DNA of 64,000 nt, taken from NCBI GenBank assembly GCA_963701965.1, contig OY969695.1, positions 192,001 to 256,000 on the forward strand. The letters run 5' to 3'. This DNA comes from an uncultured Gemmatimonadales bacterium (GTDB lineage Bacteria; Gemmatimonadota; Gemmatimonadetes; Gemmatimonadales; Gemmatimonadaceae). Positions 38,350 to 59,415 of the stretch are shown here, in pieces. The notes beneath the pieces are model-generated. The model saw only the letters and a list, made by a program, of their open reading frames with translations. It searched no databases and was not told the DNA's origin. Position 1 is the first letter of the stretch, and every line of letters starts with the position of its first letter. The translations under genes and the position numbers were made by a program.

Positions 38350-38368
38350 GGCTGATTCGGTGCTGAGG

Positions 38369-38893: not shown

Positions 38894-38898
38894 GTGGC

Positions 38899-40779: not shown

Positions 40780-41571
40780 CTATCTCGCCGAGATCCAGGC
40801 GGCAATTTGCTGGACAACCTCGCGCTCTAAGCCGTTAAAGCCGTGGTACGCAAGGGCCTCGCAGGGATCGCCTCTGTTCTCGCCGCCCTTGAACGATAGC
40901 AACTGAGTCCTCGGTGCATTTCCTAGCTTCCCCATCAGGACAGGCACCTTCGAGAAAGAGCAATGCTCGCACTCGTCTTGTTCGTGGTGTACCACCAGTA
41001 CGGGGACGCGGATCTTGTCCAGCGGCATAGCCGGTACCGGGCGGTTGCCTTTGGAGTCTGTGAGTATGGTTGACGTGAGAACTAGCCCATCCGGCCCGTC
41101 ACGACCAGCAAGCTCAGTGGCGACGTAGGCCACCGACTGGGTGCCACGGCTGGTACCGACGAGCCACACAGGAGCCTTTGCGTTTTCTCGCAACCAACCG
41201 ATGGCCGCCTTGACGTCTGCGGCGTGTTCCGGCCTCTGGCGGAACCCTGAAAGGAAAGGCGGAGACTGACGATCGGATGGGGCATCAATGACAGCAACCG
41301 TCAAGCCCGCGTCAGCGAACAGTTGGCGTGTTCGAACAAGGAAGTTTCCCTCACCCCACTTCATCGAGCCGTTCGGGAAGATCTGCAGACCTCCATGACC
41401 ACCGGCGAAAAGGATGACCGCTGCTTTCGGCTCAGGAGACGAAAGCACGATCATGCGTTGCGTGACGCCGGGTCGAGTCGGAATATCTACCACCTTCTGC
41501 GTTGTCTGGGCTTGCCCGGAGGAAAGCAACGCGAACAGAGCCGCCGCGAAAAGGGGTTTGAGTTCGCGCAT
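40780..41571 (-). CDS. Secreted alpha/beta hydrolase
   Basis: GTSRG nucleophile elbow; VHHEQD; YHGF. Confidence 0.85.
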   Translation of the reverse strand: MRELKPLFAAALFALLSSGQAQTTQKVVDIPTRPGVTQRMIVLSSPEPKAAVILFAGGHGGLQIFPNGSMKWGEGNFLVRTRQLFADAGLTVAVIDAPSDRQSPPFLSGFRQRPEHAADVKAAIGWLRENAKAPVWLVGTSRGTQSVAYVATELAGRDGPDGLVLTSTILTDSKGNRPVPAMPLDKIRVPVLVVHHEQDECEHCSFSKVPVLMGKLGNAPRTQLLSFKGGENRGDPCEALAYHGFNGLEREVVQQIAAWISAR

Positions 41572-41588
41572 GAGTCTGGTACGCGGCG

Positions 41589-42068
41589 TCAGTACGGAGT
41601 GCCGTCCTTGTGGGCAAACTGAGCCTTGCCGTCAGCTCTGACGAATTGCAAATCGTCATCCGGGAATGTCACTTGCTCATCTGGTGTTCGATCCCCAATC
41701 TCCAGGTACAGCACTTCCTCTGTGGTCTCGTTGAGCAAGTGGTGGGAGTTCCCCGTTCCAGCTCTGAACCCGGCACACATCCCGGGGGCCAGTCGAACTC
41801 GACCTTGATCAGTGTGCAAAGTCGGGTGGCCAGAGACGACGTAGACGAGCTCGTCCTGCTTCGCGTGTGAATGGCGCAGCGAGGAAACGGCATTCGGAGC
41901 GAGGCGCGTCAGATTGACGCCGAAGTTCTTGAGGCCGAAGAACTCGCCGAGTTGACGCTTCTGTCTGCCATCCACGCGCGAGAGGAACGGTTCAGGATAG
42001 AACGAGACCGCCGCGCGGACAGGTATGTCAAGGGCACTGATCGCGATCGGCGGCAAGAAGGATGACAT
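41589..42068 (-). CDS. Cupin domain protein (paralog of 20535-21013)
   Basis: FGLKNFGVNL; LRHSHAKQDE; HKDGTPY. Confidence 0.88.
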   Translation of the reverse strand: MSSFLPPIAISALDIPVRAAVSFYPEPFLSRVDGRQKRQLGEFFGLKNFGVNLTRLAPNAVSSLRHSHAKQDELVYVVSGHPTLHTDQGRVRLAPGMCAGFRAGTGNSHHLLNETTEEVLYLEIGDRTPDEQVTFPDDDLQFVRADGKAQFAHKDGTPY

Positions 42069-42096
42069 GGATACCTCCGGACACTGCATTCGTTGG

Positions 42097-42154
42097 GGCT
42101 AACGTTTGAATTCAGCGGCAGCCGACGGCGGTCCGCTGGAATGATGGGTTGGGC
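42097..42154 (-). repeat. Short 58-bp attC of a different family
   Basis: Minus strand GCCCAAC CCATCATTCCAGCGGAC..CCGCTGAATTCAAAC GTTAGCC. Confidence 0.85.
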
Positions 42155-42440
42155 GGCACCAGTTGCATGCCAACCCACCGGGGTCACGCCGAGCCTCACA
42201 GAAAGAATACCTACCGTTTCGGCCCATACCGCATGGCCACCGCGCCCGTGCGAACTCCAGGCTACTTACAAGCTTCAAGTCAACATACCTCGACAGTCCG
42301 GCGAATAGCGTCGGGCCATGCCCAGCGGGCCTTGCCTGCACTACGAACTCGTATTCATCGACCAATCCCAGCGAAGGCGGAGCCTGAGACCAAGCAAGCG
42401 TGCCTCCGAGAAGTAGCAGACAAAGGATGACCGATCGCAT
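42155..42440 (-). CDS. Secreted hypothetical cassette protein (3' end uncertain)
   Basis: Signal peptide MRSVILCLLLLGGTLAWSQ between two attC. Confidence 0.5.
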
Positions 42441-42452
42441 GGTCTTCGTGGC

Positions 42453-42521
42453 ACCTAACGTTCGACATGAGCGGCGAGCCAAAGGGCGCGAAGCGGCCTT
42501 TGGAGCGTCCGCTCGATGGAG
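42453..42521 (-). repeat. attC truncated by IS110 remnant
   Basis: ACCTAAC GTTCGACATGAG...GTCCGCTCGATGGAG followed by IS end. Confidence 0.85.
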
Positions 42522-42593
42522 CAACTGTGTCTCAAGTCAAGTGCTCCTGGATGAAGTGAGAACCGCATCGATGCGCCAGGGTGCCTGATCGCG
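42522..42593 (-). mobile_element. 72-bp right-end remnant of the IS110 at 48684-49848
   Basis: One mismatch to 48684-48755. Confidence 0.9.
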
Positions 42594-42602
42594 ACCGAAT
42601 GC

Positions 42603-43268
42603 TTAGTGGGCTCTTTGAACGCCAAGAAATAACTCAACGATACCGATGGTGTCGATGAAGCCGTGAATCAACATCACGAAAGGCAAGCTCTTCTGGCTGA
42701 AGATGTACGTCATGGCAAGCGTGAACCCTACGGCTCCGGTGAGAAGCACACCTGCCGCCCCTTGGTAAAGGTGCGCGAAGCCAAATGCCATGGAACTGAA
42801 GAGGGCCAGTGGCCATTTGAACCTTTCTCCGAAGACTATGGTTCCATACCCGATCATGAATCCTCGGAAGACCGTCTCTTCAACGAGGGCTCCGATCAGC
42901 CAAGAGGCCACGAGGAAGAATGCCAGCTTGGGCCAATTGCCGGGAATAGCTTGAAATTGCGACGTGTCGAGGGGTCGCCGCGTGAGCCACTTTGCAACGG
43001 GCTCGAACGCATAGTCGGAAAGAAGACTCACCAGTGCTGCGACGACAAGTGCGTACCCGATGATCTTTATCCAGTTGGCTGGGCGCGCTAGCCCCAACAA
43101 GGCAACGGGTTGTCGCCCGAAGCCCATTAACGCGACAACCCACGCAAATGCCAAGATCGCACCAGCGCCTGGAAGCAAGAAGCACAGCACTGGGGCAATT
43201 GCCCACAGGACCACACGTGGCCAACCGCCGCTGCTCAGGACTCTTTCCGTGTGGTCTCGCAGCGACAT
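42603..43268 (-). CDS. CPBP (Abi/CAAX) intramembrane metalloprotease
   Basis: EETVFRG; FGFAH; HGFID. Confidence 0.9.
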   Translation of the reverse strand: MSLRDHTERVLSSGGWPRVVLWAIAPVLCFLLPGAGAILAFAWVVALMGFGRQPVALLGLARPANWIKIIGYALVVAALVSLLSDYAFEPVAKWLTRRPLDTSQFQAIPGNWPKLAFFLVASWLIGALVEETVFRGFMIGYGTIVFGERFKWPLALFSSMAFGFAHLYQGAAGVLLTGAVGFTLAMTYIFSQKSLPFVMLIHGFIDTIGIVELFLGVQRAH

Positions 43269-43275
43269 GGATGCT

Positions 43276-43337
43276 TCCTAACGACATGAGGCAGGCGAAG
43301 TCTGCCGGAAACTGTCCGCTCGATGGAAGGGTTCGGC
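43276..43337 (-). repeat. attC with internal deletions
   Basis: TCCTAAC GACATGAG...GTCCGCTCGATGGAAGG GTTCGGC. Confidence 0.75.
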
Positions 43338-43356
43338 GGTACTGCGGTGGTGCCAC

Positions 43357-43731
43357 TCAGTCGATGAATGCCCAAGTGTCTGCACCATCGAAATGGCGAA
43401 CCTGAACAGACTCTTGAAGACGCGGATCAAAGTTGCTGAGGTTGATGCCATGCTTGCCACCTGGTTCCGGCGCGAGTGGCTCCCAATGCGTGACGCACCC
43501 GCAGGTCTTGCAACGCACATTACGCAGCGTCTTGTCGCCCCAGATGTACTCGGCGGTGTTCCCCGGATGTCCCTCTATCCGAACCGTCCCGAACTCGTAG
43601 TAAGCCCAGAGTCCGCCAAGGCGCCTGCAGAGGGAGCAGTTGCACTTGGTCGCCTTCTCGGGCGCTGACGGCAGCGTGAGGCGAACTGCACCGCAGTGAC
43701 ATGAACCTTGTAGCAGTTGATTCTCGCCCAT
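43357..43731 (-). CDS. GFA family protein
   Basis: GSCHCG, CNCSLCRR, CKTCGC, FDGADTW. Confidence 0.9.
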   Translation of the reverse strand: MGENQLLQGSCHCGAVRLTLPSAPEKATKCNCSLCRRLGGLWAYYEFGTVRIEGHPGNTAEYIWGDKTLRNVRCKTCGCVTHWEPLAPEPGGKHGINLSNFDPRLQESVQVRHFDGADTWAFID

Positions 43732-43757
43732 GACGGACTCGCTTGGATTCGTGTGCC

Positions 43758-43835
43758 GCCCAACGTTCGACATGAGCGGCGGCCGGAAGCGGAGGGAGCC
43801 TGCTGAAGGGACGTCCGTTCGATGGAGGGTGGGGC
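43758..43835 (-). repeat. attC
   Basis: GCCCAAC GTTCGACATGAG...GTCCGTTCGATGGAGG GTGGGGC. Confidence 0.8.
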
Positions 43836-43917
43836 GTCGCCCGCGCGAAATAAAAATAGACGTGCCGAGGAGGCCAGGCATAAGCTCTCCCCGCCTCATA
43901 CACCCTGGGAGATTCCG

Positions 43918-44325
43918 ATGACTAGGCATATTCGTTCGTTGTTTTGTGCTGGCTTCCTGCTCTTGCTCGGCGGGCAGATGCTCGCCCAAACGGCGCCGCC
44001 TGCCAAGAGGAACCTTGTGGAGTTGGCGCGTGCCGACCTCTCCGGCGCACCGAACATGGAGGTGATCACTTCTAGAGGCGAGTGGAAAACCGGCGAATCG
44101 ATTCCGAGGCACCTGCATCACGGCATTGAGACTGGCTTCGTACTTCAGGGGGCGATGGTCCAAGAACCCGGTAAGGAGCCAATGATGCTCGCTACTGGCA
44201 GCCCGCTGATGAACCTGCGCGATGTTCCACATGCTGGATTCAAAGTCGTGGGTGAGGCATCACTCATTCTGCTTACTGTTCATATCGTGGACAAAGGCAA
44301 ACCCGTCACTGAATTTCTGAACTGA
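43918..44325 (+). CDS. Secreted cupin, inverted within its cassette
   Basis: Signal peptide; PRHLHHGIE; VPH; IVDKGKP; GGAG RBS. Confidence 0.85.
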   Translation: MTRHIRSLFCAGFLLLLGGQMLAQTAPPAKRNLVELARADLSGAPNMEVITSRGEWKTGESIPRHLHHGIETGFVLQGAMVQEPGKEPMMLATGSPLMNLRDVPHAGFKVVGEASLILLTVHIVDKGKPVTEFLN

Positions 44326-44345
44326 GAAGTCGATCCCCGCACGGC

Positions 44346-44423
44346 GCCTGACGTTTGACATGAGCGGCGGCTGTACGCGAGCGAAGCTTGCCGGAGGACG
44401 TCCGCTCGACGGAGGGGTTCGGC
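44346..44423 (-). repeat. attC
   Basis: GCCTGAC GTTTGACATGAG...GTCCGCTCGACGGAGGG GTTCGGC. Confidence 0.85.
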
Positions 44424-44669
44424 CGATCACTCATTGGGACCGCGAAGTGAGCGAACGCCGGCGCGAAAGCCCTGGTGCTTTGCAAGTGGCGCGCTTGCAG
44501 GAGGTGGCTTTGCGCTGGGTGCGGGTGCCGCGGTGCCGCGAGTCGGCTGTCTCACTCAAGAGTGGCGCATCGAGGGGGTTAGGCGACAGCGACCGAACGG
44601 CAAGACCAACGGGATTGCCGGCGCCGGACACGAAGGATCCGTTAGCGGGAGGTCTCGCGCGCCCCAAGG

Positions 44670-45182
44670 TTAGAAGAGATTCGGATCAGGCGGTTTGCTG
44701 ATTTCCGAGCGATTGGCCTCTATGAACTCGCGGAACGCTCCGGAATAAAGACGTTGCCCTTCCCGGTCGAACACCTCCTTCATCAACGGGTGCCGCAGTT
44801 TCTCAAAGATGTATTGATCCCAGCCTTCGCTTTCGAACTGCTTCGCAACCCAACTAGACCTTCGCGTTGTCTGGTACATCTCTTCAAAGACGCTCAGATG
44901 GAAATACACGAAGGTCTTTAGCTGGTAGTAGTCGTCGCATCTCGGCACTTCTGCCGATGGGGCATAGAAGTACGACGTCTTCCGTTCGACCTGCTCCATG
45001 AGCAAGCGGAGCATCTTCGGGTTAGAAATCGCGAGTTTGTCGATCTCATACATCCGATCCCAAAGTTTCGCCGTTGGCGTGAGCGGCAATAGCGCCCGAG
45101 ATAAGACATAGGTAAGGAGGCCCAGCGCCGCAGCAAGCGCGGCCACCGCAACACCGAGCAAAGTGGCTTGAATCTGGGTCAT
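44670..45182 (-). CDS. Hypothetical N-terminal TM protein (cassette)
   Basis: Intact lower-GC ORF starting just after attC. Confidence 0.7.
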   Translation of the reverse strand: MTQIQATLLGVAVAALAAALGLLTYVLSRALLPLTPTAKLWDRMYEIDKLAISNPKMLRLLMEQVERKTSYFYAPSAEVPRCDDYYQLKTFVYFHLSVFEEMYQTTRRSSWVAKQFESEGWDQYIFEKLRHPLMKEVFDREGQRLYSGAFREFIEANRSEISKPPDPNLF

Positions 45183-45212
45183 GTAACGGTGTGCTGAGAG
45201 GCGTTCTATTCG

Positions 45213-45290
45213 GCCTAACGTTCGGCACGAGCGGCGGCGCAAAGGGCGCGAAGCGGGCTTTGCAACGTCCGCTCGACGGAGGGGTTAGAG
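45213..45290 (-). repeat. attC (both cores intact)
   Basis: GCCTAAC...GTTAGAG, 78 bp. Confidence 0.9.
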
Positions 45291-45725
45291 GCCACGATTG
45301 GGAGCGGTGAGTAGCTTCTTCATAAAGAACTTGGAAAAGCCCACTGGATTGTTCGGAAGCTCCCCGAAACAGATGTAGCCGATACGCTCGTAGAACCCGC
45401 GCGCCTGAAATTCAATTGTGTCGAGCCACACCCCATGGCAGTTTCTCTGCCTGGCCTCCGCCTCGGCAAGCTCCATGATCTGGGCGCCGATGCCGCGACC
45501 CCGAAGATGCGTTGGCACTGCTAGGAGATGCACCATGAGCCAGTCGTAGGACGTGTTCCCCCACAGACCTCCGATCACGGAGCCCGAGCTGTCTCTGAGC
45601 AGCACGGCCAAGTGGCGATACTGGCTAGGCCCGGCCTGACTCGTGTTGTATTGGCCGAGCACGCCACCGATGGCCTGTCGGTTGTCAGCGTCCTCGACGT
45701 CGGTGAGAGAAAGCGTGTAGTCCAT
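45285..45725 (-). CDS. GNAT acetyltransferase
   Basis: LRGRGIG; LDTIEFQARGFYE. Confidence 0.9.
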   Translation of the reverse strand: MDYTLSLTDVEDADNRQAIGGVLGQYNTSQAGPSQYRHLAVLLRDSSGSVIGGLWGNTSYDWLMVHLLAVPTHLRGRGIGAQIMELAEAEARQRNCHGVWLDTIEFQARGFYERIGYICFGELPNNPVGFSKFFMKKLLTAPNRGL

Positions 45726-45752
45726 GCTAAAGCGAGACGGCGTGCGGGTGGG

Positions 45753-45831
45753 ACCTAACGTTCGACATGAGCGGCAGCTGGAGGCAGGCAAACCCTGGCG
45801 GAAGCGGTCCCGCTCGATGGAGGGATTAGCG
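45753..45831 (-). repeat. attC separated from its gene by IS110
   Basis: ACCTAAC...CGCTCGATGGAGGG ATTAGCG. Confidence 0.85.
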
Positions 45832-45832
45832 A

Positions 45833-47499
45833 AGTAATCGGCCTGCTGCCGCAAATCGCGCCGAAGAAACTCTGCGCGGCTTTGTTGTGGCAAGGTGGAA
45901 TGCGGCGCTGCGGAAGACCGATGTGGCAGTGGTGCGTACTGCCCGCGGATTAGCGTGGTCCTGGGTGACGTCATCGACATTGGTGAACCGGCTCGACGGT
46001 TTGCAGCCGCCGGGTCGGTATCCCGTTTGAGAGAATGAGCAAGACGACGTACCCGATGCGGCGCCACATTCCACAACGGATGATGGAGCAAGCCATGGCC
46101 GGACGCAACGCAAGAGTCAGCCCCAAGCCGGATAAGTCCCGAGCAGCCCTGACGATCACCCACCCCAATGCCGCCGGAATCGACATCGACAGCGCGTCCC
46201 ACTTCGTGGCCGTACCGCCGGACCGGGACGACGAACCCGTGCGCGAGTTCCCAAGCTTCACGGTCGATCTCAACGCCCTGGCCGATTGGCTCGACGCCTG
46301 CGGCGTCGATACCGTTGCGATGGAATCGACCGACGTGTACTGGATCCCTCTGTTCGAGCTGCTGGAGTCGCGCGGCTTCACCGTGCTGCTGGTCAACGCT
46401 CGCCACGTCAAGAACGTCTCCGGGCGCAAGTCCGACGTGCTGGACTGCCAGTGGCTGCAGCAGCTCATGACCTACGGCCTGCTCAGTGGGGCGTTTCGTC
46501 CGGCCGAGCAGATCTGCGTCCTGCGCTGCCTGTACCGCCAACGCGAGATGCTGCTAAAGAGCCAGGCCCGTCATGTCCAGCACATGCAAAAGGCGCTCAC
46601 GCAGATGAACACCCAGCTGACCAATGTCCTGGCCGACATCGTCGGCGCCACGGGGCAGAAGATCTTGCGCGCCATCGTCGCCGGCGAGCGCGACGGCGCT
46701 ACGCTGGGCGCGCTCAAGAATGTGCGCGTTCATGCCAGCGCCGACGAGATCGCCAAGAGCTTGCAGGGCAACTGGCGCGCAGAGCACCTGTTTGCACTCA
46801 AGCAGGCGCTGGCACTGTTCGACTTCATCGGCACGCAGCTCAGCGAGTGCGACGGCGAGATCGAAGCCCAACTGCAGAGCCTGCGCACTCACGATGGCGA
46901 TCCCGCCAAAGGCAAGAAGCGCAGCCGCTCGCGTAACGCCCCGAAGTTCGATCTGCGCGTGCAGCTGTTCCAGATGTGCGGTGTCGACCTCACCCGTATC
47001 GACGGCGTCGACGTCACCACGGCGCTGGCGGTGGTCTCGGAGATCGGCGTGGACATGGCACGCTTCCCCACCGTCAAGCACTTCACCTCCTGGCTGGGCC
47101 TGTGCCCGGGTACCAAGATCACCGGCGGCAAGGTGATGAGCGGCAAGACCAAGCGAGTCGTCAATCGCGCTGCGCAGGCCCTGCGCCTGGCCGCCGCCGC
47201 GCTGCGCAGCAGCAAGTCAGCGCTCGGCGCGTATTTCAGAAGGCTCTGCTCGCGCATGGACAAGCCCAAGGCCGTCACCGCCGCCGCACACAAAATCGCT
47301 CGGCTCATCTACTTGATGCTGACCAAAGGCCAGGAGTACACCGATCAAGGCCAGGACTACTACGAGCAACGCTACCGCGAGCGCGTCCTGCGCGCCCTAT
47401 CTCAGCGCGCCGCCAAGCTCGGTATGAAGATGGTCGCCATCGAGCAACCCGCCTGAAATCCACCCTCCAAATCAATCACTTGGAACGAGTTTCTTGAGA
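45833..47499 (+). mobile_element. IS110 family element (long type), GA core inferred
   Basis: GA at both junctions (45831-32, 47500-01); ~260-bp structured non-coding left end. Confidence 0.8.
46095..47456 (+). CDS. IS110 family transposase/recombinase
   Basis: AAGIDID, VAMEST, RKSDVLDC, SWLGLCP. Confidence 0.92.
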   Translation: MAGRNARVSPKPDKSRAALTITHPNAAGIDIDSASHFVAVPPDRDDEPVREFPSFTVDLNALADWLDACGVDTVAMESTDVYWIPLFELLESRGFTVLLVNARHVKNVSGRKSDVLDCQWLQQLMTYGLLSGAFRPAEQICVLRCLYRQREMLLKSQARHVQHMQKALTQMNTQLTNVLADIVGATGQKILRAIVAGERDGATLGALKNVRVHASADEIAKSLQGNWRAEHLFALKQALALFDFIGTQLSECDGEIEAQLQSLRTHDGDPAKGKKRSRSRNAPKFDLRVQLFQMCGVDLTRIDGVDVTTALAVVSEIGVDMARFPTVKHFTSWLGLCPGTKITGGKVMSGKTKRVVNRAAQALRLAAAALRSSKSALGAYFRRLCSRMDKPKAVTAAAHKIARLIYLMLTKGQEYTDQGQDYYEQRYRERVLRALSQRAAKLGMKMVAIEQPA

Positions 47500-47501
47500 G
47501 A

Positions 47502-47925
47502 CGCCAGCATGCCAGAGCCTGATACGAGCCTGCCGCAAAGCGAACCAGCCCGTAGAGACTGCAAGCGTGACGCCTGCGGCGGCCTCGAACCAGATGGTGA
47601 AGTTCATCGCAAGCGTGTGCTCAGAGCAGAGAGCCAGCGTGTAGTGCGCAAGCCCGTCGAGTCCAAACGCTCCATAAGCGGCGAAGAAGAGTGCGGCCGT
47701 TGTGCGCCAACCTGCCGCAACAAGAACGGCGCCGATGATGCCGACGCCGGTGATCATCAGCCAGGCGAGATAGACCTTTTCCCTTGTGAGCCAGGTTGGC
47801 ATGTTCGGATAGAAAGCGATGTATTCCGCGTTGTGGCTGAAGTGAGCGAGGCTCGCGACGCCATACAGCGCGAGCACCGGCCACACGTGGCTTGGCAAAT
47901 GCAACGAGCCGGGAAGCTCCTTCAC
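47502..47925 (-). CDS. Hypothetical membrane protein (3' end cut by IS110)
   Basis: HFSHNAE, YPNMP; four TM segments. Confidence 0.7.
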
Positions 47926-47932
47926 TGCTGAG

Positions 47933-48010
47933 GCCTAACGTTCGACATGAGCAGCGGCGCAAAGGGCGCGAAGCGGCCTTTGGGACGTTCGCTCGATGGA
48001 GGGGCTAGAG
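47933..48010 (-). repeat. attC
   Basis: GCCTAAC...CTCGATGGAGGG GCTAGAG. Confidence 0.9.
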
Positions 48011-48011
48011 C

Positions 48012-48608
48012 TCACTGGGCAGGCGACGGCTGATCCCTTTGCACGAGCGACAGATATTGCTCGAGAGTTCCGCACGAAAGCGGCTTGAACATGACGCGCA
48101 AGGTATTTGTGAGCTTCCCCATTTCGACGCCATGGCGCGTTCTGACTTCAATGTACCCGAGCGCTTCCCAAAACCGCTCGGCTCGACTGTTGCCCTGTAC
48201 GACGCCGAGCCGAAGCCACTTGGCACCGTTGGAGGCGGCCCACGCTTCGAGTTCGCCATACAGCGCCTGGGCAAGCCCCGTCCCGTGATGCGAAGTGGCT
48301 ATCACAAATAAACCAATGTGCCAGACGCTCGGGGCAAGAAGATCGGAGACGATGTTCGCCATCGCAACCATTCCTCCATCGGCGTTCAAGTAGCCCACCA
48401 ACCACTTTCTCGTGAAGCTCCACCCTACCGGCAATTCGCCATGGATTTCTTGGTGCGCCTCGTTCGGTCCCGCGGGCACACCGTTAACCGCAAGAAAGTA
48501 TTGCGGATTGGCTACGAAGAAGGCCTGCAGCAGCTGCTCATCTTCACCCGTGATCTCTATCGCACGCAAGCCCGGAACGAAGGAGACCGGGAGTGCGGCG
48601 ACCGTCAT
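48012..48608 (-). CDS. GNAT acetyltransferase
   Basis: HHGTGLA; LRLGVVQGNSRAERFW. Confidence 0.88.
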   Translation of the reverse strand: MTVAALPVSFVPGLRAIEITGEDEQLLQAFFVANPQYFLAVNGVPAGPNEAHQEIHGELPVGWSFTRKWLVGYLNADGGMVAMANIVSDLLAPSVWHIGLFVIATSHHGTGLAQALYGELEAWAASNGAKWLRLGVVQGNSRAERFWEALGYIEVRTRHGVEMGKLTNTLRVMFKPLSCGTLEQYLSLVQRDQPSPAQ

Positions 48609-48614
48609 CGTGGG

Positions 48615-48683
48615 CTCTAGCGTTCGACATGAGCGGCGGCCGCAGTCAAGTGCAGCTTGCCGAAGGACGTCCGCTCGATGGAG
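48615..48683 (-). repeat. attC split by IS110 (remainder at 49851-49859)
   Basis: CTCTAGC GTTCGACATGAG...CTCGATGGAG, then IS, then GAGTTAGGT. Confidence 0.9.
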
Positions 48684-48698
48684 CAACTGTGTCTCAAG

Positions 48699-49669
<971 letters not shown>

Positions 49670-49670
<1 letters not shown>

Positions 49671-49830
49671 CTACCCTTCCTTGCGAATGCATGTTCATCA
49701 TCGACAACTGTTCGGGCTACACGGTTGGATAAGAACGGGCCAATGCGTTGACCTAATGCTCCATCACGAGCTAGAACTCAGAGGGGTAACTGGTTTGGCG
49801 CATCGACCACGAAACTACGGCACTGCTGTG
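49670..49830 (-). ncRNA. Predicted bridge RNA (ends approximate)
   Basis: Four guide segments matching target and donor junctions in IS621 order. Confidence 0.8.
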
Positions 49831-49900
49831 CCTACTTCGGAAGATACAAGGAGTTAGGTCGCACCTCGGCTGCCGCGATACGCTCTTGCCCGTGTGGCTA

Positions 49901-50197
49901 CTACACGCCCTCAAGGGTAATGAGCATGTCCATTTCACTAGTGCATTGCTTCCGAAGAGCAATCAGCGGCGCATATTCGGGCGCGGTGTACCAGGCGTTA
50001 AGCGCTGTCATATCCGGGAACTCGATGATCACGACGCGCTCTGGGGTCCAGTGGCCTCCTTCGGGCATCCTATGGGCTCCTCCCTTGTTGAGATAGCGGC
50101 CTCCGTACTTGGCGATGAGTGGGCCAACCTTGACGCGGTAGTCCTCGAACTTGGACGCATCCGTGATGATGTGCTCAACGATCAAGTAAGCGGACAT
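49901..50197 (-). CDS. DUF1330 protein
   Basis: YGGRYL; IIEFPD; WY..PEY..LIALR. Confidence 0.88.
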   Translation of the reverse strand: MSAYLIVEHIITDASKFEDYRVKVGPLIAKYGGRYLNKGGAHRMPEGGHWTPERVVIIEFPDMTALNAWYTAPEYAPLIALRKQCTSEMDMLITLEGV

Positions 50198-50239
50198 GGG
50201 TTGCCTCCGAATGCGAGCAGTCTCAGTGTTTGCGGCGCG

Positions 50240-50307
50240 ACCTAACGTTTGAGATGAGAGGCGTGACCCGGCTCGCGGGGCAAGTCCTCTCGATTAAAGG
50301 GTTAGGC
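50240..50307 (-). repeat. attC of dfrB cassette (68 bp, cores intact)
   Basis: ACCTAAC GTTTGAGATGAG...CTCGATTAAAGG GTTAGGC; dfrB stop lies in the core box. Confidence 0.9.
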
Positions 50308-50538
50308 CACGCGTTCAAGTGCAGCGACAGGATAAATTTGTACTGAGCCTGGGTGAGATTCAGACTCGACGGCGTAGCCCTCAGGGGTCAGTTTTGTGCA
50401 ATACCAGCCGACAACTTGACCCTGCCAAGCGGCGCCAGACTTCTTGCGTACACGATCTCCCAGGCCAAACGTGGCGCGCAGTCGCAATGCAAACGGACCA
50501 GCAACTGGAGTACTGATGTCGTTGCTACTTTGATCCAT
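50302..50538 (-). CDS. dfrB: Type II (R67-like) dihydrofolate reductase, trimethoprim-resistant
   Basis: 78 aa; [34 protein letters not shown]. Confidence 0.97.
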
Positions 50539-50646
50539 ACCTAACCCTTTTCGTCAATGTTTTGAGATGCTCGGCTGATCCAGGTCTACTTTTTGATTGG
50601 GCGATGACCTTGAAATCCTTCGCCCATGACGAGCCTGCTGGAGGAC

Positions 50647-51899
50647 GGGATCTTGCTCCGCTTTAGTTGACACATTGTTGTTAGGTCGTGCGTCGTTCGA
50701 AGGTAGCTGGCGGCGTGTGATCGAGAGACGAGTGCAGCCGCGTGTGGTTGTAGTACCGCAGGTAGGTGTGCAGAGTCTGCCTGAGCTCCTGGTCGCTGTC
50801 GAACCGCTTGCCCCAGAGGAACTCGCTCTTGAGTGAGTGGAAGAACGATTCCATGTGGGCGTTGTCGTTCATCTGACCGGGACGGTTCATGCTCTGCACG
50901 ATGCCGTGGCGGCGCAACGCCGCCTGGTAATCGAAGGCGCCGTACTCGATGCCGCGGTCGGTGTGGAAGATCAGGCCCGGCTCGGGTCGCCGCTTACGCA
51001 CAGCGTGCTGCAACGCTGTTCGGGTTAACTCGGCATCGCGTCTCTTGCTCAGGCTCCAGCCCACAAGCCTGCGTGAGTACTTGTCCATGACGACGGCCAT
51101 GTAGCGCCATTGCTGCCTGACGCGCAGGTAAGTGACGTCACCCACCCAGACTTGGTTGGTGTCTTGAAGCTGCAGGTGGCGCTGCCGGTTGGGGATGCGC
51201 TTGTAGAAGGCCTTCTGGCCCACCCTTCGGCGGCGATAGAGCCGCGCGCTGCGGCCCTGGATGTGTGCGCCGCGCATGAGCCTGGCGACCCGCCGGCGGC
51301 CGATTGATAAGCCCGCCTGCCGCATGGCTTGAGTCACCCGCGGACTGCCGTAGGTGTTCAAGCTGCTCGCGTGGACGCTGCGGATCTGCTCGGTGATGGC
51401 AGCGTCATCGACCTGGTGTTGGCTGGCTCCGCGTGCCTGCCAGGCGTAGAAGCCGGCCCGCGTTACGCCCAGCTGCCTGCACATCATCGCGAGGGGCCAC
51501 GCTTGCCGGTTTGTCCCGATGAAGGCGAAGACTTCGCCTTTCGTTCTGAGACAAACCGGATAGCTTTTTTTAGCAGGTCGTGCTCCATCTGCAGCTGCCG
51601 GTACTTGCCCTCGACTTCGCGCAGCCGCTGTAGCTCCGCTACAGCGGCTGCATCGAGCACCGGTGACTTGCCACTGAGCACGCCGTCTCTGACCTGCTTC
51701 CTCCACTTGGAGAGCATGAAGGGGTGGATGCACAGCGACTCGGCCACATCCTTGACGAGTACGCCGGGCTGCTCGCTCATGCGAACCGCGCGTAGCTTGA
51801 ACTCAAGCCCGTAGCGGTTGATCTTCTTCGGGCCAGGCATGCCCATTTGAGAACTCCTTCCGTTAGGTCAGAGTGTCAATCAAACCGGTGCAAGCTCCA
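50647..51899 (-). mobile_element. IS3 family element inserted in an attC
   Basis: 27-bp imperfect IRs; orfA from 51846, A7G slippery site 51564-51571; orfB WVGDVTY, HTDRG, DNAHMESFF. Confidence 0.93.
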
Positions 51900-51918
51900 C
51901 GTCCGCTCGATGGAGCGG

Positions 51919-52413
51919 TTAGGCCACATGTTGCGCTTGCTCGAGGACACTACCTGGTAACCAGCAAGCCATCCGAGTGGCGATCGCGCCTTTGCGCCGA
52001 AATGGCTTCGAGATGGGAAAGAAACCCAACGCTTGGTATGCGGCAATAGCGTACGGCGACGAGTTGAGTTCGACGGTTTTGACTTCCGGATAACTCTCTT
52101 CAAGGTGGGCGCGTGCGGCATTCCACAACGCCCGCCCGATGCCCTTGCGCAACTGACTGGGAGCGACAAAGAACAGTTGCACAAGCGTCAAGCGAGGCAA
52201 GAGGATGACTCCGACTACCTGAGCGTCGTGCTCGCACACCAAGCAAAGGGCTGCCTCGGAAAGCTTTAATGCGAGCTTGTCGGCCTGGGTTTCGGCGATG
52301 AACTCGTGCTGAGCCGACAACTCCCAATCTGGGGCAATGTGCGCGGCGAAGCCGGCTTGAACCAGCTGCGAAATGGCCACCGCATCATCAGCGTTCGGTT
52401 GGCGCAGATGCAT
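51919..52413 (-). CDS. GNAT acetyltransferase
   Basis: FFVAPSQLRKGIG; LNSSPYA..AY..LGF. Confidence 0.88.
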   Translation of the reverse strand: MHLRQPNADDAVAISQLVQAGFAAHIAPDWELSAQHEFIAETQADKLALKLSEAALCLVCEHDAQVVGVILLPRLTLVQLFFVAPSQLRKGIGRALWNAARAHLEESYPEVKTVELNSSPYAIAAYQALGFFPISKPFRRKGAIATRMACWLPGSVLEQAQHVA

Positions 52414-52421
52414 GCTCGTGG

Positions 52422-52499
52422 GTCTAACGTTTGAGATGAGCGGCGGCCGCAGGCAAGCGCAGCTTGCCGGAGGACGTCCACTCGATGGAAGGGCTAGGC
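52422..52499 (-). repeat. attC of first cassette
   Basis: GTCTAAC GTTTGAGATGAG...CTCGATGGAAGG GCTAGGC. Confidence 0.9.
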
Positions 52500-52525: not shown

Positions 52526-53068
52526 CTACGCACTCGCCTTGGGCCACCCGACGTTTGCAGCACGACGAAGACTGGCTTTCACAACCTGGCGATGAAAGGG
52601 AGCAATGACCGATAGGTAGGCTCGGCCCAAGCGGTTGTGGCAGTAAACGACGGTTGATAGGGTCAGTTGGCTACCGGTAGTTGGCGGCGAGCCTGGCGTA
52701 CAAAGAATTGACACTCTGAAGTCAAGATGCTTGTCGTTCTCGCCTAAGACGACCTCAGTTTCGCTGGTGCTGAAGACCCTGAAGATGCTGATGCGGGGGG
52801 CTGTGGCATCACTAGAGAGCGTTGCAAGGTGCTTGGCGGTCTTCAGACCAAATCCCGCAACGATTGCATCTCGGACTTGGATGAGCGCTCCGATCCAAGA
52901 TGGCTGCTCCGCGAAGATGAATCGGGCCAAGACATCTGGATTTATAGAGGCGTCAGAAGGAAGTCGAATCGAAAACGCGTCTGCGAGGTTCACCGACTTG
53001 AATGCAGTAGCGACGGCAGACTGCGAGGGCAGGGCAACCTGCTCTACTAGCGTGAGTTTGCCTGGCAT
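52526..53068 (-). CDS. DUF2867 protein (first cassette)
   Basis: GENDKHLDFRVS; HNRLGRAY...PFH. Confidence 0.85.
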   Translation of the reverse strand: MPGKLTLVEQVALPSQSAVATAFKSVNLADAFSIRLPSDASINPDVLARFIFAEQPSWIGALIQVRDAIVAGFGLKTAKHLATLSSDATAPRISIFRVFSTSETEVVLGENDKHLDFRVSILCTPGSPPTTGSQLTLSTVVYCHNRLGRAYLSVIAPFHRQVVKASLRRAANVGWPKASA

Positions 53069-53084: not shown

Positions 53085-53170
53085 GCCTAACGAACAGCGT
53101 TTGTCTGACGCCGAGCCGATGTCTGTCGAAGGGCGTGACGGGACATGGCGTCAGATAAACCCCGTTGGAC
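53085..53170 (-). other. Putative attI
   Basis: Minus strand ACAAACGCTGTTC GTTAGGC just before first cassette; not of attC family; 14-bp inverted repeat 53099-53112 / 53147-53160. Confidence 0.7.
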
Positions 53171-53201
53171 TGAACCGCCGATATGGCGGTGCGCTATGGG
53201 C

Positions 53202-53231
53202 AGTGTAAGTTTCGGCGCTGAGCTAAGGCAA
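53202..53231 (-). promoter_or_regulatory. Candidate Pc cassette promoter
   Basis: TTGCCT-18 nt-TACACT pointing into attI. Confidence 0.4.
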
Positions 53232-53239
53232 CGCCGTCG

Positions 53240-53972
53240 TGCTGCGGACGAACCCGATAGCGGTGATGGTTGCTCGAAGTTGTCTTCGAATGGCGCTCGG
53301 AGTCGAGTTTGCCGCCACGGCCCGTGGCTCGATGCCTGGTAGTAGCGAAGCAGACGCGATACGTTCCCGGCCTGCGTCGACGAGGCCTTGCAGGAGACAG
53401 CCGCGCGCCCGAGCCCATCAGGGCGGCCTCCGACATGCGGTCGACGCGGCGATCGAGGTCAGCGCCGGCCGATCAGCCGCCACGTGCTGCAGCACTCGCC
53501 AGCGTCCGATACTGCAATCAGGGGCCATCCCGGTCGGTGATGGCGAGGTAGGTCTCGTCGAGCTCGACCATCCCCCAGACGATCGCGATCGGGCCGCACC
53601 ATCGCCCGGCGAAACCGGTACAGCATCGCCCAGGCGGTCTGGTAACTGCCCAGCCCGAGCACCCGCTGCAGCCCCAAGGCGCTCAGGCCCTGCTTCTGGT
53701 TGGTCAGGTACAAGGCCGCAGCCGGCCAGACCCGCGGCGGGGTGCGGGTCTTGTCGAAGATCGTTCCCGCCGTCACGGTGCTCTGGTGGCGCGCAGTCCT
53801 TGCACATCATGCGGATGCGGCTGGCACGGTAGGACACGCTCGCCACGCCGCAGCTCGGGCAGATGAAGCCGTTCGGCCAGCGCAATCCCTCCAGGTAGGC
53901 AAGGCACGCGTCCTCGGTCGAGAACTGATCGAGGAACTCGGTCCAGGTGCGTGGATAAGGTTGACTGGACAT
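53240..53972 (-). mobile_element. IS1595 family transposase remnant (left limit approximate)
   Basis: YPRTWTEF..FSTEDACLAYLEGLRWPNGFICPSC; TAGTIFDKTR; VELDETY. Confidence 0.8.
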
Positions 53973-53982: not shown

Positions 53983-53998
53983 CTGTATATTTATCCAG
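53983..53998. promoter_or_regulatory. LexA (SOS) box
   Basis: CTGTATATTTATCCAG = CTG-N10-CAG with AT-rich spacer in a GC-rich context; TTGACT -35 at 53961. Confidence 0.85.
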
Positions 53999-54000
53999 TA

Positions 54001-55930
54001 GTGCGCCGGGAGGCCGGCAAGGAGTAGAGGGGTGAGAGTCCCCGACGACCAAGACGTAGCGAGTCATGTTGTCCCCGAGTCATGCGCAGCGCATCGCGAG
54101 GTGTGCGGCGAAGCGTTGACAGGGGTGCGTGTAGGCCAGCCATTGAGCCACGAAATGTTTATTCAGACCCGGGTGCCGACGCCGTTACTGTGGCGGAAGG
54201 CAACACGCGCGGGCGCGCCATCGCAAGTGCCCGTGCGACCCGGCGGGGTCAGAGACCCTGGCATGCACGTACGCTCCTTGCACGGGAACCGGGAGATCTG
54301 CGAACCGACCAAGCGCTGGAGCGATCCGGTGGAGGTCCGCGTCGGGAAGGCGAGGAGCCGAAGCCGATGATGAACGGGACGCAGAAGTCAGACTCGCCCA
54401 TAGTAGCGATGAAGCCGGCGAACAAACCCGAACGCCTGATGGCAGGGGCGGGTGCGGAGTCGGTGGAGCCAAGGGGCGGGGCCAAGGGGAACGCGGACCA
54501 GTCACGCACGTGCCGGACGCAGGGCCGGGAAAGCGTGTTCCAGAGGCTGGATCGCGTGCGCCAAGCCGCAAGGCAGAGGAAGAAGGAGAAGTTCACCGCG
54601 CTGATGCACCTTGTCGATGTCGAACTGCTCAGAGAGTCGTACTTCTGGCTACAGCGGAAGGCGGCCGCCGGGGTGGATGGCGTCACATGGCAACAGTACG
54701 GCGAAGGCCTCGAAGAACGGCTCGAGCAACTGCACGGGCGCATCCACCGCAACGCCTACCTGGCGACGCCGTCCCGGCGCCAGTACATCCCCAAAGCAGA
54801 CGGTCGCATGCGGCCGCTGGGGATCGCGGCGCTCGAAGACAAGATCGTCCAGCGGGCGCTGGTGGAAGTGCTCAACGCGGTCTATGAGCAAGACTTCTTG
54901 GGCTTCTCGTACGGGTTCAGGCCGCAACGCAGCCAGCATCAAGCGCTGGACGCGTTGGCGGTTGGCATCACGCGTACCAATGTGAGCTGGATCGTGGACG
55001 CCGACATCAAGAGCTTCTTCGACGCGGTCAGCCACGCGTGGTTGATCAAGTTCCTGGAGCACCGAATCGGCGACCCACGCATCATTCGCCTCATAGGCAA
55101 ATGGCTGAAGGCCGGCACGCTGGAAGAAGGCAAGCTGGTGGCAAGCGAGGAGGGCACGCCGCAAGGCGCGGTCATCTCGCCGCTGCTGGCCAACATCTAC
55201 CTGCACTACGTCTTCGATCTCTGGGCACATCAATGGCGCCAGCGCCATGCTCGGGGCAACGTGGTGATCGTGCGCTACGCCGACGATATCGTGGTCGGCG
55301 TGGACAAGGAGTCGGATGCCACGCGCTTCGTGCAGGCGATGCGATCGAGACTGGAGCAGTTCAAGCTAACGCTGCATCCCGAAAAGACCCAGGTGATCCG
55401 GTTCGGCCGCTTCGCGGCGGCCAACCGGGCCAAGCGAGGTCTGGGCAAACCGCAGACGTTCGACTTCCTCGGGTTCACGCACATCAGCGGGCACGACCGA
55501 CGCGGCAAGTTCTTGCTGCAGCGGATCACCCGGCGCGACCGGATGGTTGCTACGCTGAAGCGGATCAAGGAAGAGTTGCGGCGGCGTTGGCACATCTCGG
55601 TCCACGAGCAAGGGAAGTGGCTGCGCAAGGTGGTGCAGGGTTACTTCGGCTACCACGCCGTGCCCGGCAACTACCCGCGCATGAAGGCGTTCCGAAACCA
55701 CGTCACCGACCTCTGGCGAAAGGCGCTGCGGCGCCGGGGCCAGCGGGATCGGACGACGTGGAAGAAGGCGTTCCGGTTGGCCGCGGAGTGGTTGCCCCGA
55801 GCTCGTGTCCTTCACCCCTGGCCGAACCAGCGCTTCGACGCCACCCACCCAAGGCAGGAGCCCGGTGCGCGAATCGTGCACGCCGGGATCTGTGCGGGGG
55901 GCGCCCGGTAACGGGTGGCCCTATCGCGAT
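54001..55930 (+). mobile_element. Group II intron (IIB-like), full length
   Basis: 5' GTGCG; domain V GAGCCCGGTGCGCGAATCGTGCACGCCGGGATC at 55858; 3' AT. Confidence 0.92.
54367..55911 (+). CDS. ltrA: Group II intron reverse transcriptase/maturase, no HNH domain
   Basis: RPLGI, SYGFRP, GTPQG..ISPLLANIYL, RYADD, FDFLGF. Confidence 0.95.
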   Translation: MMNGTQKSDSPIVAMKPANKPERLMAGAGAESVEPRGGAKGNADQSRTCRTQGRESVFQRLDRVRQAARQRKKEKFTALMHLVDVELLRESYFWLQRKAAAGVDGVTWQQYGEGLEERLEQLHGRIHRNAYLATPSRRQYIPKADGRMRPLGIAALEDKIVQRALVEVLNAVYEQDFLGFSYGFRPQRSQHQALDALAVGITRTNVSWIVDADIKSFFDAVSHAWLIKFLEHRIGDPRIIRLIGKWLKAGTLEEGKLVASEEGTPQGAVISPLLANIYLHYVFDLWAHQWRQRHARGNVVIVRYADDIVVGVDKESDATRFVQAMRSRLEQFKLTLHPEKTQVIRFGRFAAANRAKRGLGKPQTFDFLGFTHISGHDRRGKFLLQRITRRDRMVATLKRIKEELRRRWHISVHEQGKWLRKVVQGYFGYHAVPGNYPRMKAFRNHVTDLWRKALRRRGQRDRTTWKKAFRLAAEWLPRARVLHPWPNQRFDATHPRQEPGARIVHAGICAGGAR

Positions 55931-55947: not shown

Positions 55948-56229
55948 GTGGACAACGCCAGCGGCCGCGTCGAGGCTGAATGTGGACGATCGGCGCCGTT
56001 TCGGTTGCTCGATGCCTTGCGCGAGCGCCTGCGGTACATGCACTACAGCTTACGGACCGAGGAAGCCTATGTCCATTGGGTGCGCGGCTTCGTACGGTGG
56101 TCGGGTCGACGCCATCCGCGCGACATGGGTGCGGCGGAGGTGCGCGATTTCCTGACCATGCTGGCGAGCGAGCGGCGCGTCGCCGCGGCCGCGCACCGGC
56201 AAGCCCTCAGCGCGCTGCTGTTCCTCTAG
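55948..56229 (+). pseudogene. intI: Integron integrase, N-terminal domain only
   Basis: [51 protein letters not shown] then stop. Confidence 0.92.
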
Positions 56230-59200
56230 TGCTACCGCGCTACGCCGAGCTTCACTGTCGCAGCAACTTCAGCTTCCTGACGGGCGCGTCGCATCCCGAG
56301 GAGCTGGTCGAGCGCGCCGCCGCGCTCGGCTACGGCGCGATCGCGATCACCGACGAGTGCTCGCTCGCCGGCGTCGTGCGCGCGCACGTCGAGGCGCAGG
56401 CGCAAAAGCTGCCGCTCGTCATCGGCAGCGAGATCCGCCTCACCGATGCCGAGACCGGCGCGCCGCATGCGCGTCTGGTGCTGCTGGCGCAGTCGCGGCG
56501 CGGCTATGGCAACCTCGCCCACTGGATCACAGTCGCGCGTCGTCGAGTCGAGAAGGGCCACTACCGCGCCCATCCGGGCGACGTCGAAGGCAAGGTGCCC
56601 AATGCGCCGATGCTCGCCGGCCTCGGCGGCTGCTTCGCCTTGCTCGTGCCCGCGGCTTCGCAGGATCCTGCCGAGATCCTGGCCCACGCGACTTGGCTCA
56701 AGAGCTGGTTCCAGGAGCGTGCGGCGATCGCCATCGAGCTGCTCCATCGCGCCGCCGACGACGATCTCGTCGACCACGTCACCGAGGTCGCGGCGCGCAC
56801 CGGCCTGCCGATCGTCGCCGCCGGCGACGTGCTGATGCACGTGCGCTCGCGAAAGCCCCTGCAGGACACGCTGACGGCGACGCGCCTCGCCAAGTCGGTG
56901 GCCGAGTGCGGCCTCGCGCTCGAGCCCAACGCCGAGCAGCACCTGCGCTCGAAGAGCCGCCTGGCCGCGCTCTACGAGCCGGCGTGGCTCGAGCAGACGA
57001 TGGCGATCGTCGCGGACTGCAAGTTCTCGCTCAGCGAGCTGAAGTACGAGTACCCGCAGGAGATCGTGCCGCCGGGCGAGACGCCGGCGTCGCAGCTGCG
57101 AAAGCTCACCTACGCGGGCGCGCTGAAGCGCTTCCCGCAGGGCCTGCCCGACGAGCACCGCGCGACGATCGAGCACGAACTCGGAGTCATCGCCGAGCTG
57201 CAGTACGAGTCGTACTTCCTCACCGTCGCCGACATCGTCGACTGGGCGCGCGAGAAGAATATCCTGTGCCAGGGCCGCGGCAGCGCCGCCAACTCGCTGG
57301 TTTGCTACTGCCTGCACGTCACCGAGGTCGACCCGCGCCGCGCCAGCCTGCTGTTCGGCCGCTTCATCAGCGTCGAGCGCAAGGAGCCGCCCGACATCGA
57401 CATCGACTTCGAGCACCAGCGGCGCGAGGAGGTGATCCAGTACATCTACGGCAAGTACGGCCGGCACCGCGCCGCGCTCGCCGCGGTGGTAATCAGCTAC
57501 CGGCCGCGCTCGGCGCTGCGCGACGTCGGCCGCGCCCTCGGCATCGACCTGCAGCGGATCGAGGCGGTGTCGAAGAGCCAGCACTGGTTCGACGGCCGCG
57601 GCATCGCGCCCGAGCGGCTGCGCGAGAACGGCTTCGATCCGGAATCTCCGGTGGTCCAGCTCTGGATGGAGCTCACCGGCCAGCTGATCGGCTTCCCGCG
57701 CCACCTCTCGCAGCATCCGGGCGGCTTCGTCATCGGCAAGAACCAGATCGAGGAGCTGGTGCCGATCGAGAACGCGGCGATGGAAGACCGGAGCGTCATC
57801 CAGTGGGACAAGGACGACCTCGAATCGCTTGGGTTGCTGAAGGTCGACATCCTCGCCATCGGCATGCTGAGCGCGATCCGCCGCTCGCTCGAGTACATCG
57901 GCACCAAGCTCGGCCGCACGCCGCTCATGATGCAGGAGATCGGCGAGGGCGACGTGCCGACCTACGACATGATCTGCAAGGCCGACACCGTCGGCGTGTT
58001 CCAGATCGAGAGCCGGGCGCAGATGAGCATGCTGCCGCGCCTGAAGCCGCGCTGCTACTACGACCTAGTGGTCGAGGTGGCGATCGTCCGGCCGGGGCCG
58101 ATCCAGGGCGGCATGGTTCATCCGTACCTGAAGAACCGCACGCTCGCCGACCGCGAGATCGACTGTCCCGAGGAGCTCAAGCCGGCGCTGCTGCGAACCA
58201 AGGGCGTGCCGATCTTCCAGGAGCAGGTGATGCAGATCGCCATGCTCGCCGCCGACTTCACCGCCGGCGAGGCCGATGCGCTGCGCCGCGCGATGGCGGC
58301 GTGGAAGCGGCGCGGCGGCCTGTCGCCGTTCCACAAGCGGCTGGTGGGCCGGATGGTCGAGAAGGGCTACACGCGCGAATACGCCGAGCGCATCTTCAAG
58401 CAGATCCAGGGCTTCGGCGAATACGGCTTTCCGGAAAGCCACGCCGCCGGCTTCGCGCTGCTCGCCTACGTCAGCAGCTGGATCAAGTGCCACCATCCCG
58501 ACGCCTTCCTCTGCGGCCTGCTCAACGCCCAGCCGATGGGCTTCTACGCGCCGGCGCAGCTGGTGCGCGATGCGCGCGAGCACGGCGTCGAGGTGCTGCC
58601 GGTCGACGTCGCGGTGAGCGACTGGGAAAGCACGATGGCGGGCGAGGGCAGCGCGAGCGCCGGGGCCGGCCCGCTCGGCCAGGGTGGCGCCGCAGCAGCC
58701 GGTCCGGCTCGGCCTCAACCGCGTCAAGGGGCTCGCCGAAGAGGCCGGCCGGCGCGTCGTCGCTGCGCGCGCCGAGGCGGCCTTCGTCAGCGTCGAAGAC
58801 CTGGCGCGGCGCGCCCTCCTCGACGCCCATGCCCTGGCGGTGCTCGCCGAATCGGGGGCACTGCAGGCGCTCACCGGCCATCGCTACCAGGCGGCGTGGG
58901 CGGTGGCGGGAATCGACACCCGGCCGACCGAGATGCTGCGCGCGACGCGTAGCCACGAAACCGGCGTGGCGCTGGCCGCGCCGAGCGAGGGCGAGGAAAC
59001 GCTCGCCGACTACCGCGCCCTCGGACTGACGCTGCAACGCCATCCGCTCGCCCTGCTGCGGCCGCAGCTCGCCGCCTTCCGCATCGAGCCGGCGGCGCGC
59101 TTGCGCACTTTTCCGAACGGCCGGCTGGCGCGTGCGAGCGGCCTGGTGACGCACCGGCAGCGGCCCGAGACGGCCAAGGGAACGGTCTTCGTCACGCTCG

Positions 59201-59415
59201 AGGACGAGACCGGCGCGGTCAACGTCATCGTCTGGCCGCGCGTCGCCGAGGCGCAGAGGAAGCCGCTGCTCGGCGCGACCCTTCTTACCGTCTACGGCCA
59301 ATGGCAGCGCCAGGGCGAGGGCGACGAGGCGGTGATGCACCTCGTCGCCGCGAAGATGATCGACCACACGTCGCTGCTCAAGGGCCTGGTCACGCGCAGC
59401 CGCGACTTCCGCTAG
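56229..59415 (+). CDS. dnaE2: Error-prone DNA polymerase DnaE2/ImuC (frameshift ~58680)
   Basis: YAELHCRSNFSFL, GRGSAANS, PPDIDIDFE, GFPESHA, terminal SRDFR. Confidence 0.95.

Follow-up and report, generated by a model that had tools for sequence, protein, structure and literature searches.

How does a gene for a predicted trimethoprim-insensitive dihydrofolate reductase come to lie in a cassette array of an assembly filed under Gemmatimonadota, and what does it say about the source of such genes? The gene occurs in a stretch of 64,000 nucleotides, the whole of which is called the window here. The reading we favour, with considerable confidence, is that of a dfrB10-like cassette with an intact attC in a decayed chromosomal integron, from a likely Caldimonas-like member of the Burkholderiales, on a segment likely mis-assembled into a Gemmatimonadota genome, the predicted product being a trimethoprim-insensitive enzyme. 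The features concerned are as follows, in window coordinates:

31756..52499 (−): cassette array, containing all 17 attC matches of the whole assembly, on a single strand
49901..50197 (−): DUF1330 cassette gene, the downstream neighbour of dfrB; its attC is interrupted by an IS110 element
50240..50307 (−): attC of the dfrB cassette, intact, 68 bp; its R'' box overlaps the dfrB stop codon
50302..50538 (−): dfrB10-like type II dihydrofolate reductase gene, 78 residues, changed relative to DfrB10 at residues 7, 8, 15 and 19
50539..50629 (−): conserved dfrB10-family leader, only its 3' part of about 90 bp
50630..50647 (−): further part of the GNAT-cassette attC (left half), which runs directly into the dfrB leader and holds one copy of a 3-bp target duplication
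50648..51898 (−): IS3-family element, which interrupts the attC remnant and is flanked by the 3-bp target duplication; genome G513 has a copy with 99.6% identity
51899..51924 (−): R''/L'' half of the GNAT-cassette attC
51919..52413 (−): GNAT acetyltransferase cassette gene, the upstream neighbour of dfrB
52526..53068 (−): DUF2867 cassette gene, with its attC at 52422..52499 (−)
53085..53518 (−): attC-like hairpin (53085–53170) and IS91-type element tail; genome G490 has a counterpart with 89% identity
53519..53982 (−): remnant of an IS1595-family transposase; in relatives this place holds the integrase promoter's −35 box and attI
53983..53998 (+): LexA-box-like palindrome belonging to the integrase promoter; genomes G194, G501 and G514 have it at the same position
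54001..55930 (+): inserted group II intron, separating the LexA box from the intI start
55948..56229 (+): truncated integron integrase gene, 93 residues, N-terminal domain only; its stop codon overlaps the dnaE2 start
56229..59415 (+): dnaE2, the chromosomal anchor of the integron locus in the likely donor genus

The dfrB gene and its product

The open reading frame is full-length and its product scores above the family cut-offs of both NCBIfam trim_DfrB (NF000331; 161.9 bits, cut-off 137) and PF06442 (score 165, cut-off 25). The residues listed as diagnostic in the retrieved part of PMC9774602, K32, W38, W45 and V66-Q67-I68-Y69, are all present, in agreement with the claim of the first-pass annotation that this is an intact 78-residue DfrB with a VQIY motif. 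In the PDB it matches R67 dihydrofolate reductase (E 1.5e-33). In DfrB enzymes, four SH3-like protomers form a single central pore, and the VQIY tetrads together with K32 bind NADPH and dihydrofolate; trimethoprim does not inhibit these enzymes, so that folate reduction bypasses FolA. Judged by the R67 structures and by the identity of its core to that of DfrB10, the window product is predicted to be a DfrB10-like homotetramer with one central active site and trimethoprim-insensitive dihydrofolate reductase activity. If expressed, the gene would likely confer trimethoprim resistance; for DfrB10 in E. coli, the retrieved text of PMC8103504 gives an MIC of >600 µg/mL. No FolA was found in the assembly, a result that says little, since only a fragment of the donor is present.

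The closest named allele is DfrB10, with 74 of 78 residues identical (94.9%), including all of residues 20–78; the four differences lie in the N-terminus, which had indeed been noted as unlike that of other alleles. At the nucleotide level the gene and clinical dfrB10 differ at 23 positions, with 18 synonymous versus four non-synonymous codon changes, an excess that suggests purifying selection along the lineage. The other named alleles compared are 88.5% (B2/B3), 79% (B1), 76% (B4) and 87% (B11) identical; B21 agrees at 70 of 78 residues, with eight differing positions, as read by eye from Table S2 of PMC10432401, and for B5–B7, B9 and B12–B20 identity is bounded at ≤93% via their published identity to B10. 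The window protein is none of the named alleles B1–B21. A new number is given below 95% protein identity to every named DfrB, according to the retrieved part of PMC8103504, and the window protein falls below that limit marginally, a single residue deciding.

The exact protein is absent among about 15 billion sequences, and Table S3 of PMC11662351 does not contain its N-terminal motif. We found 1034 homologues, the best with 96% identity, and one 90% cluster containing DfrB10 has 326 members. Three of the four changes relative to DfrB10 recur among 111 homologues; Arg19 occurs in none of these, position 19 being Pro in 108 of them. Arg19 may be specific to this gene, or it may be a base error, the segment having many frameshifts; as to base accuracy nearby, only two substitutions in 1253 bp separate the adjacent IS3 from an independent copy. 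The proposal of a possibly new allele holds formally, but the changes are confined to the variable N-terminus and the cluster is large. Likewise, the suggested comparison with named alleles returned none identical, yet placed the protein next to DfrB10, amid unnamed dfrB10-like variants. As an allele it carries little weight, being one among hundreds of such variants.

The GC content of dfrB is 54.9%, below both the 61.2% of the array and the 68.3% of the chromosome segment around it, so the visibly lower GC first remarked upon is real, and its GC3 (48%) is the lowest among the 14 array genes measured. The neighbouring cassettes are also low in GC (53.7–60%).

The cassette and its decayed integron

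At its 3' side the cassette is complete. The bottom strand of the attC forms a hairpin in which the R and L boxes pair, with a folding energy of −16.9 kcal/mol (z −4.68) that none of 200 shuffles matched. The site scores 34.3 bits against an attC HMM from whose training set every dfrB-linked attC had been excluded; none of 480 control stretches scored as much as 8 bits. Fold and HMM confirm the earlier claim that dfrB has its own attC with intact cores. The site belongs to the same family as the attCs after other dfrB10-like genes and the one after dfrB in a Comamonas class 1 integron. Searches for attC were made with profile models; a generic regex and fold scan of the whole genome was dropped as too noisy.

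The 5' side has been lost. The leader of about 90 bp upstream of dfrB is common to three other loci (L011, L013 and L083); in L011 and L083 the cassette starts at a core site about 235 bp upstream, and the 5' 140 bp or so of this leader is missing in the window. The right half of the GNAT attC and the start of the dfrB cassette have been deleted, leaving neither an intact upstream attC nor an attI as 5' boundary, and the cassette is not excisable alone in cis. Were an integrase provided in trans, the most it could remove would be dfrB, the IS3 and the GNAT gene together, between the intact attCs at 52422 and 50240.

In seven loci (L010, L011, L012, L013, L014, L020 and L083) a duplicated ribosome-binding and start motif lies 45 nt upstream of the dfrB start and in frame, raising the possibility of a 93-residue form of many dfrB10-like proteins. 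In the window (50539–50590) the upstream in-frame start is lost and a stop codon is in frame. A literature search found nothing on N-terminal truncation of R67.

As a same-strand attC array, the locus corresponds to a sedentary chromosomal integron in a decayed, CALIN-like state. It does not have the make-up of a class 1 integron: among the 46 window open reading frames scanned there was no qacEdelta1/sul1 or other resistance cassette, and no other resistance family scored above cut-off. IS110-family elements, or the end of one, lie inside array attCs at 48690–49860, 45830–47500 and 42530–42600, a pattern that resembles that of attC-targeting elements of the IS1111 type. The IS3 element next to dfrB, like its copy in G513 (L133), ends in GG...CC rather than TG...CA and has an attC-core-like heptamer near both ends. 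A RibD-like cassette protein (35226–35816) has relatives labelled "dihydrofolate reductase" by JGI and gives no FolA or DfrA profile match.

Scanning metagenomes with the GNAT protein yielded 28 loci; dfrB was matched at none of them, and no uninterrupted GNAT–dfrB junction was recovered. In cluster tables, relatives of GNAT, DUF1330 and dfrB all appear on contigs of 3866 bp, which hints at linkage of the three elsewhere. In four sequencing runs, only relatives at about 85–90% identity cover dfrB, with no piece spanning the region; no run contained more than 0.14 of the words searched for, and no RNA run was among the matches listed.

Upstream of the array little of the integration machinery remains. 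The intI fragment is 63% identical to IntI1 over 75 residues and, compared with relatives, about 0.9 kb is missing; there is no full-length IntI, and no integrase above the family cut-off was found in the whole assembly. The attI motif, located about 110–130 bp beyond the LexA box in G194, G501 and G514, is absent from the window, so no attI lies beside intI. The hairpin at 53085–53170 is probably what was first taken for attI; it is not the attI of this lineage but lies at the tail of an IS91-type element. The G490 element (L134) codes for a tyrosine recombinase and for a Y2 (IS91-type) transposase; its end is formed by an attC-like hairpin that contains a core site and directly precedes a cassette-like gene. 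The description of dfrB as the third cassette from attI was therefore mistaken; with attI lost and intI reduced to 93 codons, dfrB is the third intact cassette gene. That it lies in a chromosomal integron was correct as regards the array and the dnaE2-anchored locus, but the first-pass annotation overlooked that this integron is decayed and inactive in cis. Part of the decay of intI and attI could be an assembly error. A second, frameshifted group II intron lies near 60.7–62.4 kb.

The native state of the locus can be seen in relatives. In the genus closest by DNA identity, 19 of 49 genomes have intI immediately upstream of dnaE2, a fixed chromosomal position; of these 19, 17 have room for a full intI, one has a shorter gap and one (G501) a truncated gene. 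The integron can therefore be regarded as sedentary, and its loss as recurrent. The truncation in G501 (L138) is independent, its junction differing from that of the window. The most complete example, G514, has a full intI, LexA box, attI and 19 attC matches at E<1e-3; its dfrB, about 13.6 kb into the array, is 90% identical to that of the window, with other neighbours and only attC remnants around it. G194 has the same locus with 17 attCs. Genes like dfrB were found in three of the 49 genomes of this donor-like genus and in five of 401 genomes sampled from the wider family. What is newly added here is the intI–dnaE2 locus across the likely donor genus, including one genome with a dfrB10-like gene in a complete integron. 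The arrangement, with its LexA-like box, could place dnaE2 under the SOS promoter of the integrase. We rejected a reading of the truncated intI as a conserved, SOS-coupled leader of dnaE2, given the room for full intI in 17 of 19 relatives and the different junction in G501.

From these observations a sequence of events can be proposed. A native integrase, encoded beside dnaE2, would have inserted the dfrB cassette into the array. Deletions would later have removed the right half of the upstream attC with the 5' end of the cassette, attI and most of intI, in an order that we infer, and the IS3 and the group II intron would have been inserted after them.

Origin of the segment and competing readings

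The assembly (G000) is a single contig of 5.12 Mb with a scored contamination of 4.2%. Its only 16S gene has ≤80% identity to any PLSDB record among the matches listed, and its McsB is nearest to Gemmatimonadota clusters, a lead and not an alignment. Bases 1 to about 328,360 and about 5,106,720 to the end have a distinct oligonucleotide signature; together they form a segment of about 338 kb that contains the window. Second copies of 11 of 12 core genes tested lie on it, 35–53% identical to the host copies, as do duplicates of tRNAs already present in the host. The window LolE is 70% identical to Mitsuaria versus 34–36% to the host's own genus, and the named matches of the window 2OG-oxygenase are Caldimonas sp. 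(75–79%). The two junctions (near 328,360–328,370 and 5,106,720; L044 and L045) split the host clpC and a donor ABC permease gene reciprocally, while in G003, of the same genus as the host, clpC is continuous across the exact junction point. With clpC broken at the splice and 11 of 12 core genes present twice, a Burkholderiales segment mis-assembled into a Gemmatimonadota-like genome is the likely explanation. The donor is likely a Caldimonas-like member of the Burkholderiales, as judged from best DNA and protein identity rather than from a tree.

Were the segment instead truly transferred into a Gemmatimonadota chromosome, the phylum would be a genuine host of dfrB, and the shared contig and the two clean, reciprocal junctions are what one would then see. 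Such a transfer, however, would have interrupted both the host clpC and the donor permease gene and would have brought in tRNAs and core genes that the host already has; no repeat or mobile element was found at either junction, dfrB is present in 0 of 40 host relatives, and the donor halves sit at the two contig ends, which is expected of an assembler that crosses between a circle and a linear contig. We regard true transfer as very improbable. Flow in another direction, a recent return of the cassette from clinical class 1 integrons to an environmental chromosome, is also highly unlikely and largely refuted already: its closest named allele, dfrB10, does occur in class 1 integrons on Pseudomonas megaplasmids, but the 23 nucleotide differences, the different leader of the clinical cassette with only about 25 bp of the window attC, the 63% identity of the integrase fragment to IntI1 and the lack of any other resistance family above cut-off among the array open reading frames scanned all speak against it.

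A further alternative is compatible with the reading we favour and differs from it only in phenotype: the gene may be intact and effectively silent in its host, giving no resistance in situ, because the cassette promoter would have gone with attI and the IS3 would block read-through. In its favour, the attI region is absent, the 5' part of the conserved leader is lost, and a sigma-70 scan of 49800–54100 gave no promoter-like site. IS3 elements can provide outward promoters, however; the excess of synonymous changes suggests selection along the lineage, and low DfrB expression suffices for resistance according to the retrieved text of PMC9774602. Silence is a real but, on this evidence, lesser possibility.

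The first-pass annotation was right to place this DNA in an environmental betaproteobacterial reservoir, but the assembly is not that of a betaproteobacterium, its likely chimeric nature was missed, and the reservoir had already been published (PMC11662351). Taken at face value, the assembly would wrongly credit a Gemmatimonadota genome with 338 kb of betaproteobacterial DNA and a gene for trimethoprim resistance, at a contamination score of just 4.2%; caution is warranted when resistance genes are assigned to hosts from single-contig metagenome assemblies.

Cassettes at other dfrB loci and comparison with known systems

A GTDB scan (a sample) gave at least 26 dfrB loci, of which 21 were kept. 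Those dropped were a dfrB1-like gene in Pseudomonas (L025), a locus with IntI1 in its flank (L026), a truncated gene (L028), a 211-bp contig (L034) and a distant homologue (L035). Counts among the 21 are not independent events, some loci being related. In seven of the 21 among the matches listed (L012, L013, L015, L016, L017, L019 and L030), both models find an attC that is nearly full and begins at the stop codon, at 16–39 bits; in L014 the attC passes the covariance model only, and L010 and L033 have partial remnants. At least one same-strand attC (E<1e-3) is present in the fetched flanks of 14 of the 21 among the matches listed, with no opposite-strand match at that level, and the flanks of the other seven listed (L011, L018, L020, L022, L023, L024 and L033) have none. 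An attC of another family, seen by eye after dfrB in L011, was not counted, neither model having detected one. A full integrase is present in the flank of L030 only, among the 21 matches listed; this locus (G044, 1727–10624) is a complete betaproteobacterial integron, not of class 1, with a more distant dfrB (72%) between full attCs.

According to the retrieved text of PMC11662351, the Burkholderiales are the original hosts of dfrB, the environmental copies are read as non-mobile, and a first mobilisation mediated by insertion sequences is proposed. Two of the seven attC-ending loci, L015 and L016, correspond to its Variovorax soli and Noviherbaspirillum records, with class 1 context "none" in Table S3. 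Integrase-mediated capture of cassettes is favoured as the route to clinical integrons because seven of the 21 dfrB loci, outside class 1 integrons and including these two, end in a full attC. We think it somewhat more probable than otherwise that the environmental dfrB10-like reservoir is largely a pool of cassettes in sedentary integrons of Burkholderiales, and that many of the "non-mobile" copies are cassettes or their relics, with an attC overlapping the stop codon. If so, entry into clinical class 1 integrons would need capture by an integrase only, and not mobilisation from a core gene cluster by insertion sequences. This bears on the first-mobilisation step left open by PMC11662351, of which it is a moderate, testable refinement. 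Neither the allele nor the environmental reservoir, already published there, is surprising; of more weight than the allele itself is the repeated finding of dfrB10-like genes with an attC of their own within the chromosomal integron arrays of Burkholderiales.

The environmental Burkholderiales genes of PMC11662351 belong to the same allele group and host order as the window gene and, like it, have no other resistance genes nearby in the retrieved account; class 1 context was scored there, whereas the window gene is a cassette in a chromosomal integron array. An open-access literature search found no paper placing dfrB10-like genes in a defined chromosomal integron of Burkholderiales. The retrieved part of PMC12486381 reports three of 139 homologues near an attC. 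In PMC9774602, as far as its retrieved text goes, dfrB12, dfrB19 and a putative B4 occur in attC clusters without an integrase, and the likewise putative C1 in an integron with metabolic genes. Like the window gene, these are environmental and lie in attC clusters with metabolic cassettes and no resistance genes; unlike it, dfrB12, dfrB19 and B4 come from contigs of 0.7–3 kb with neither integrase nor chromosomal anchor, while the window array is tied to a genus-wide intI–dnaE2 locus. Sedentary chromosomal integrons carrying catB3, qacI and qnrVC1 (PMC8352920) similarly place resistance cassettes in environmental taxa, but those cassettes are 100% identical to clinical ones, which the window dfrB is not; the retrieved text of that paper has no Burkholderiales model and does not mention dfrB.

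The clinical counterpart, DfrB10 (WP_172688537.1), is encoded in a class 1 integron on Pseudomonas blaDIM megaplasmids. A comparison of leader and attC, as had been suggested, showed that the ribosome-binding end of the leader and the first 25 bp or so of the attC are alike but the rest of both differs. The attC has its full 68 bp in the window and is interrupted in the clinical cassette, and the setting is a decayed chromosomal integron in one and a class 1 multi-resistance array in the other. In the clinical cassette (L001, 5230–5475), about 25 bp of the environmental attC are followed by about 145 bp of unrelated DNA and a second attC, which suggests that it was rebuilt during capture. A Comamonas testosteroni plasmid (NZ_CP043574.1) has an unnamed dfrB as the first cassette of a class 1 integron; its protein, of 79 residues, is 82% identical to that of the window, and the gene has been captured behind intI1 with an attC that, along its whole length, is of the same family as the window attC.
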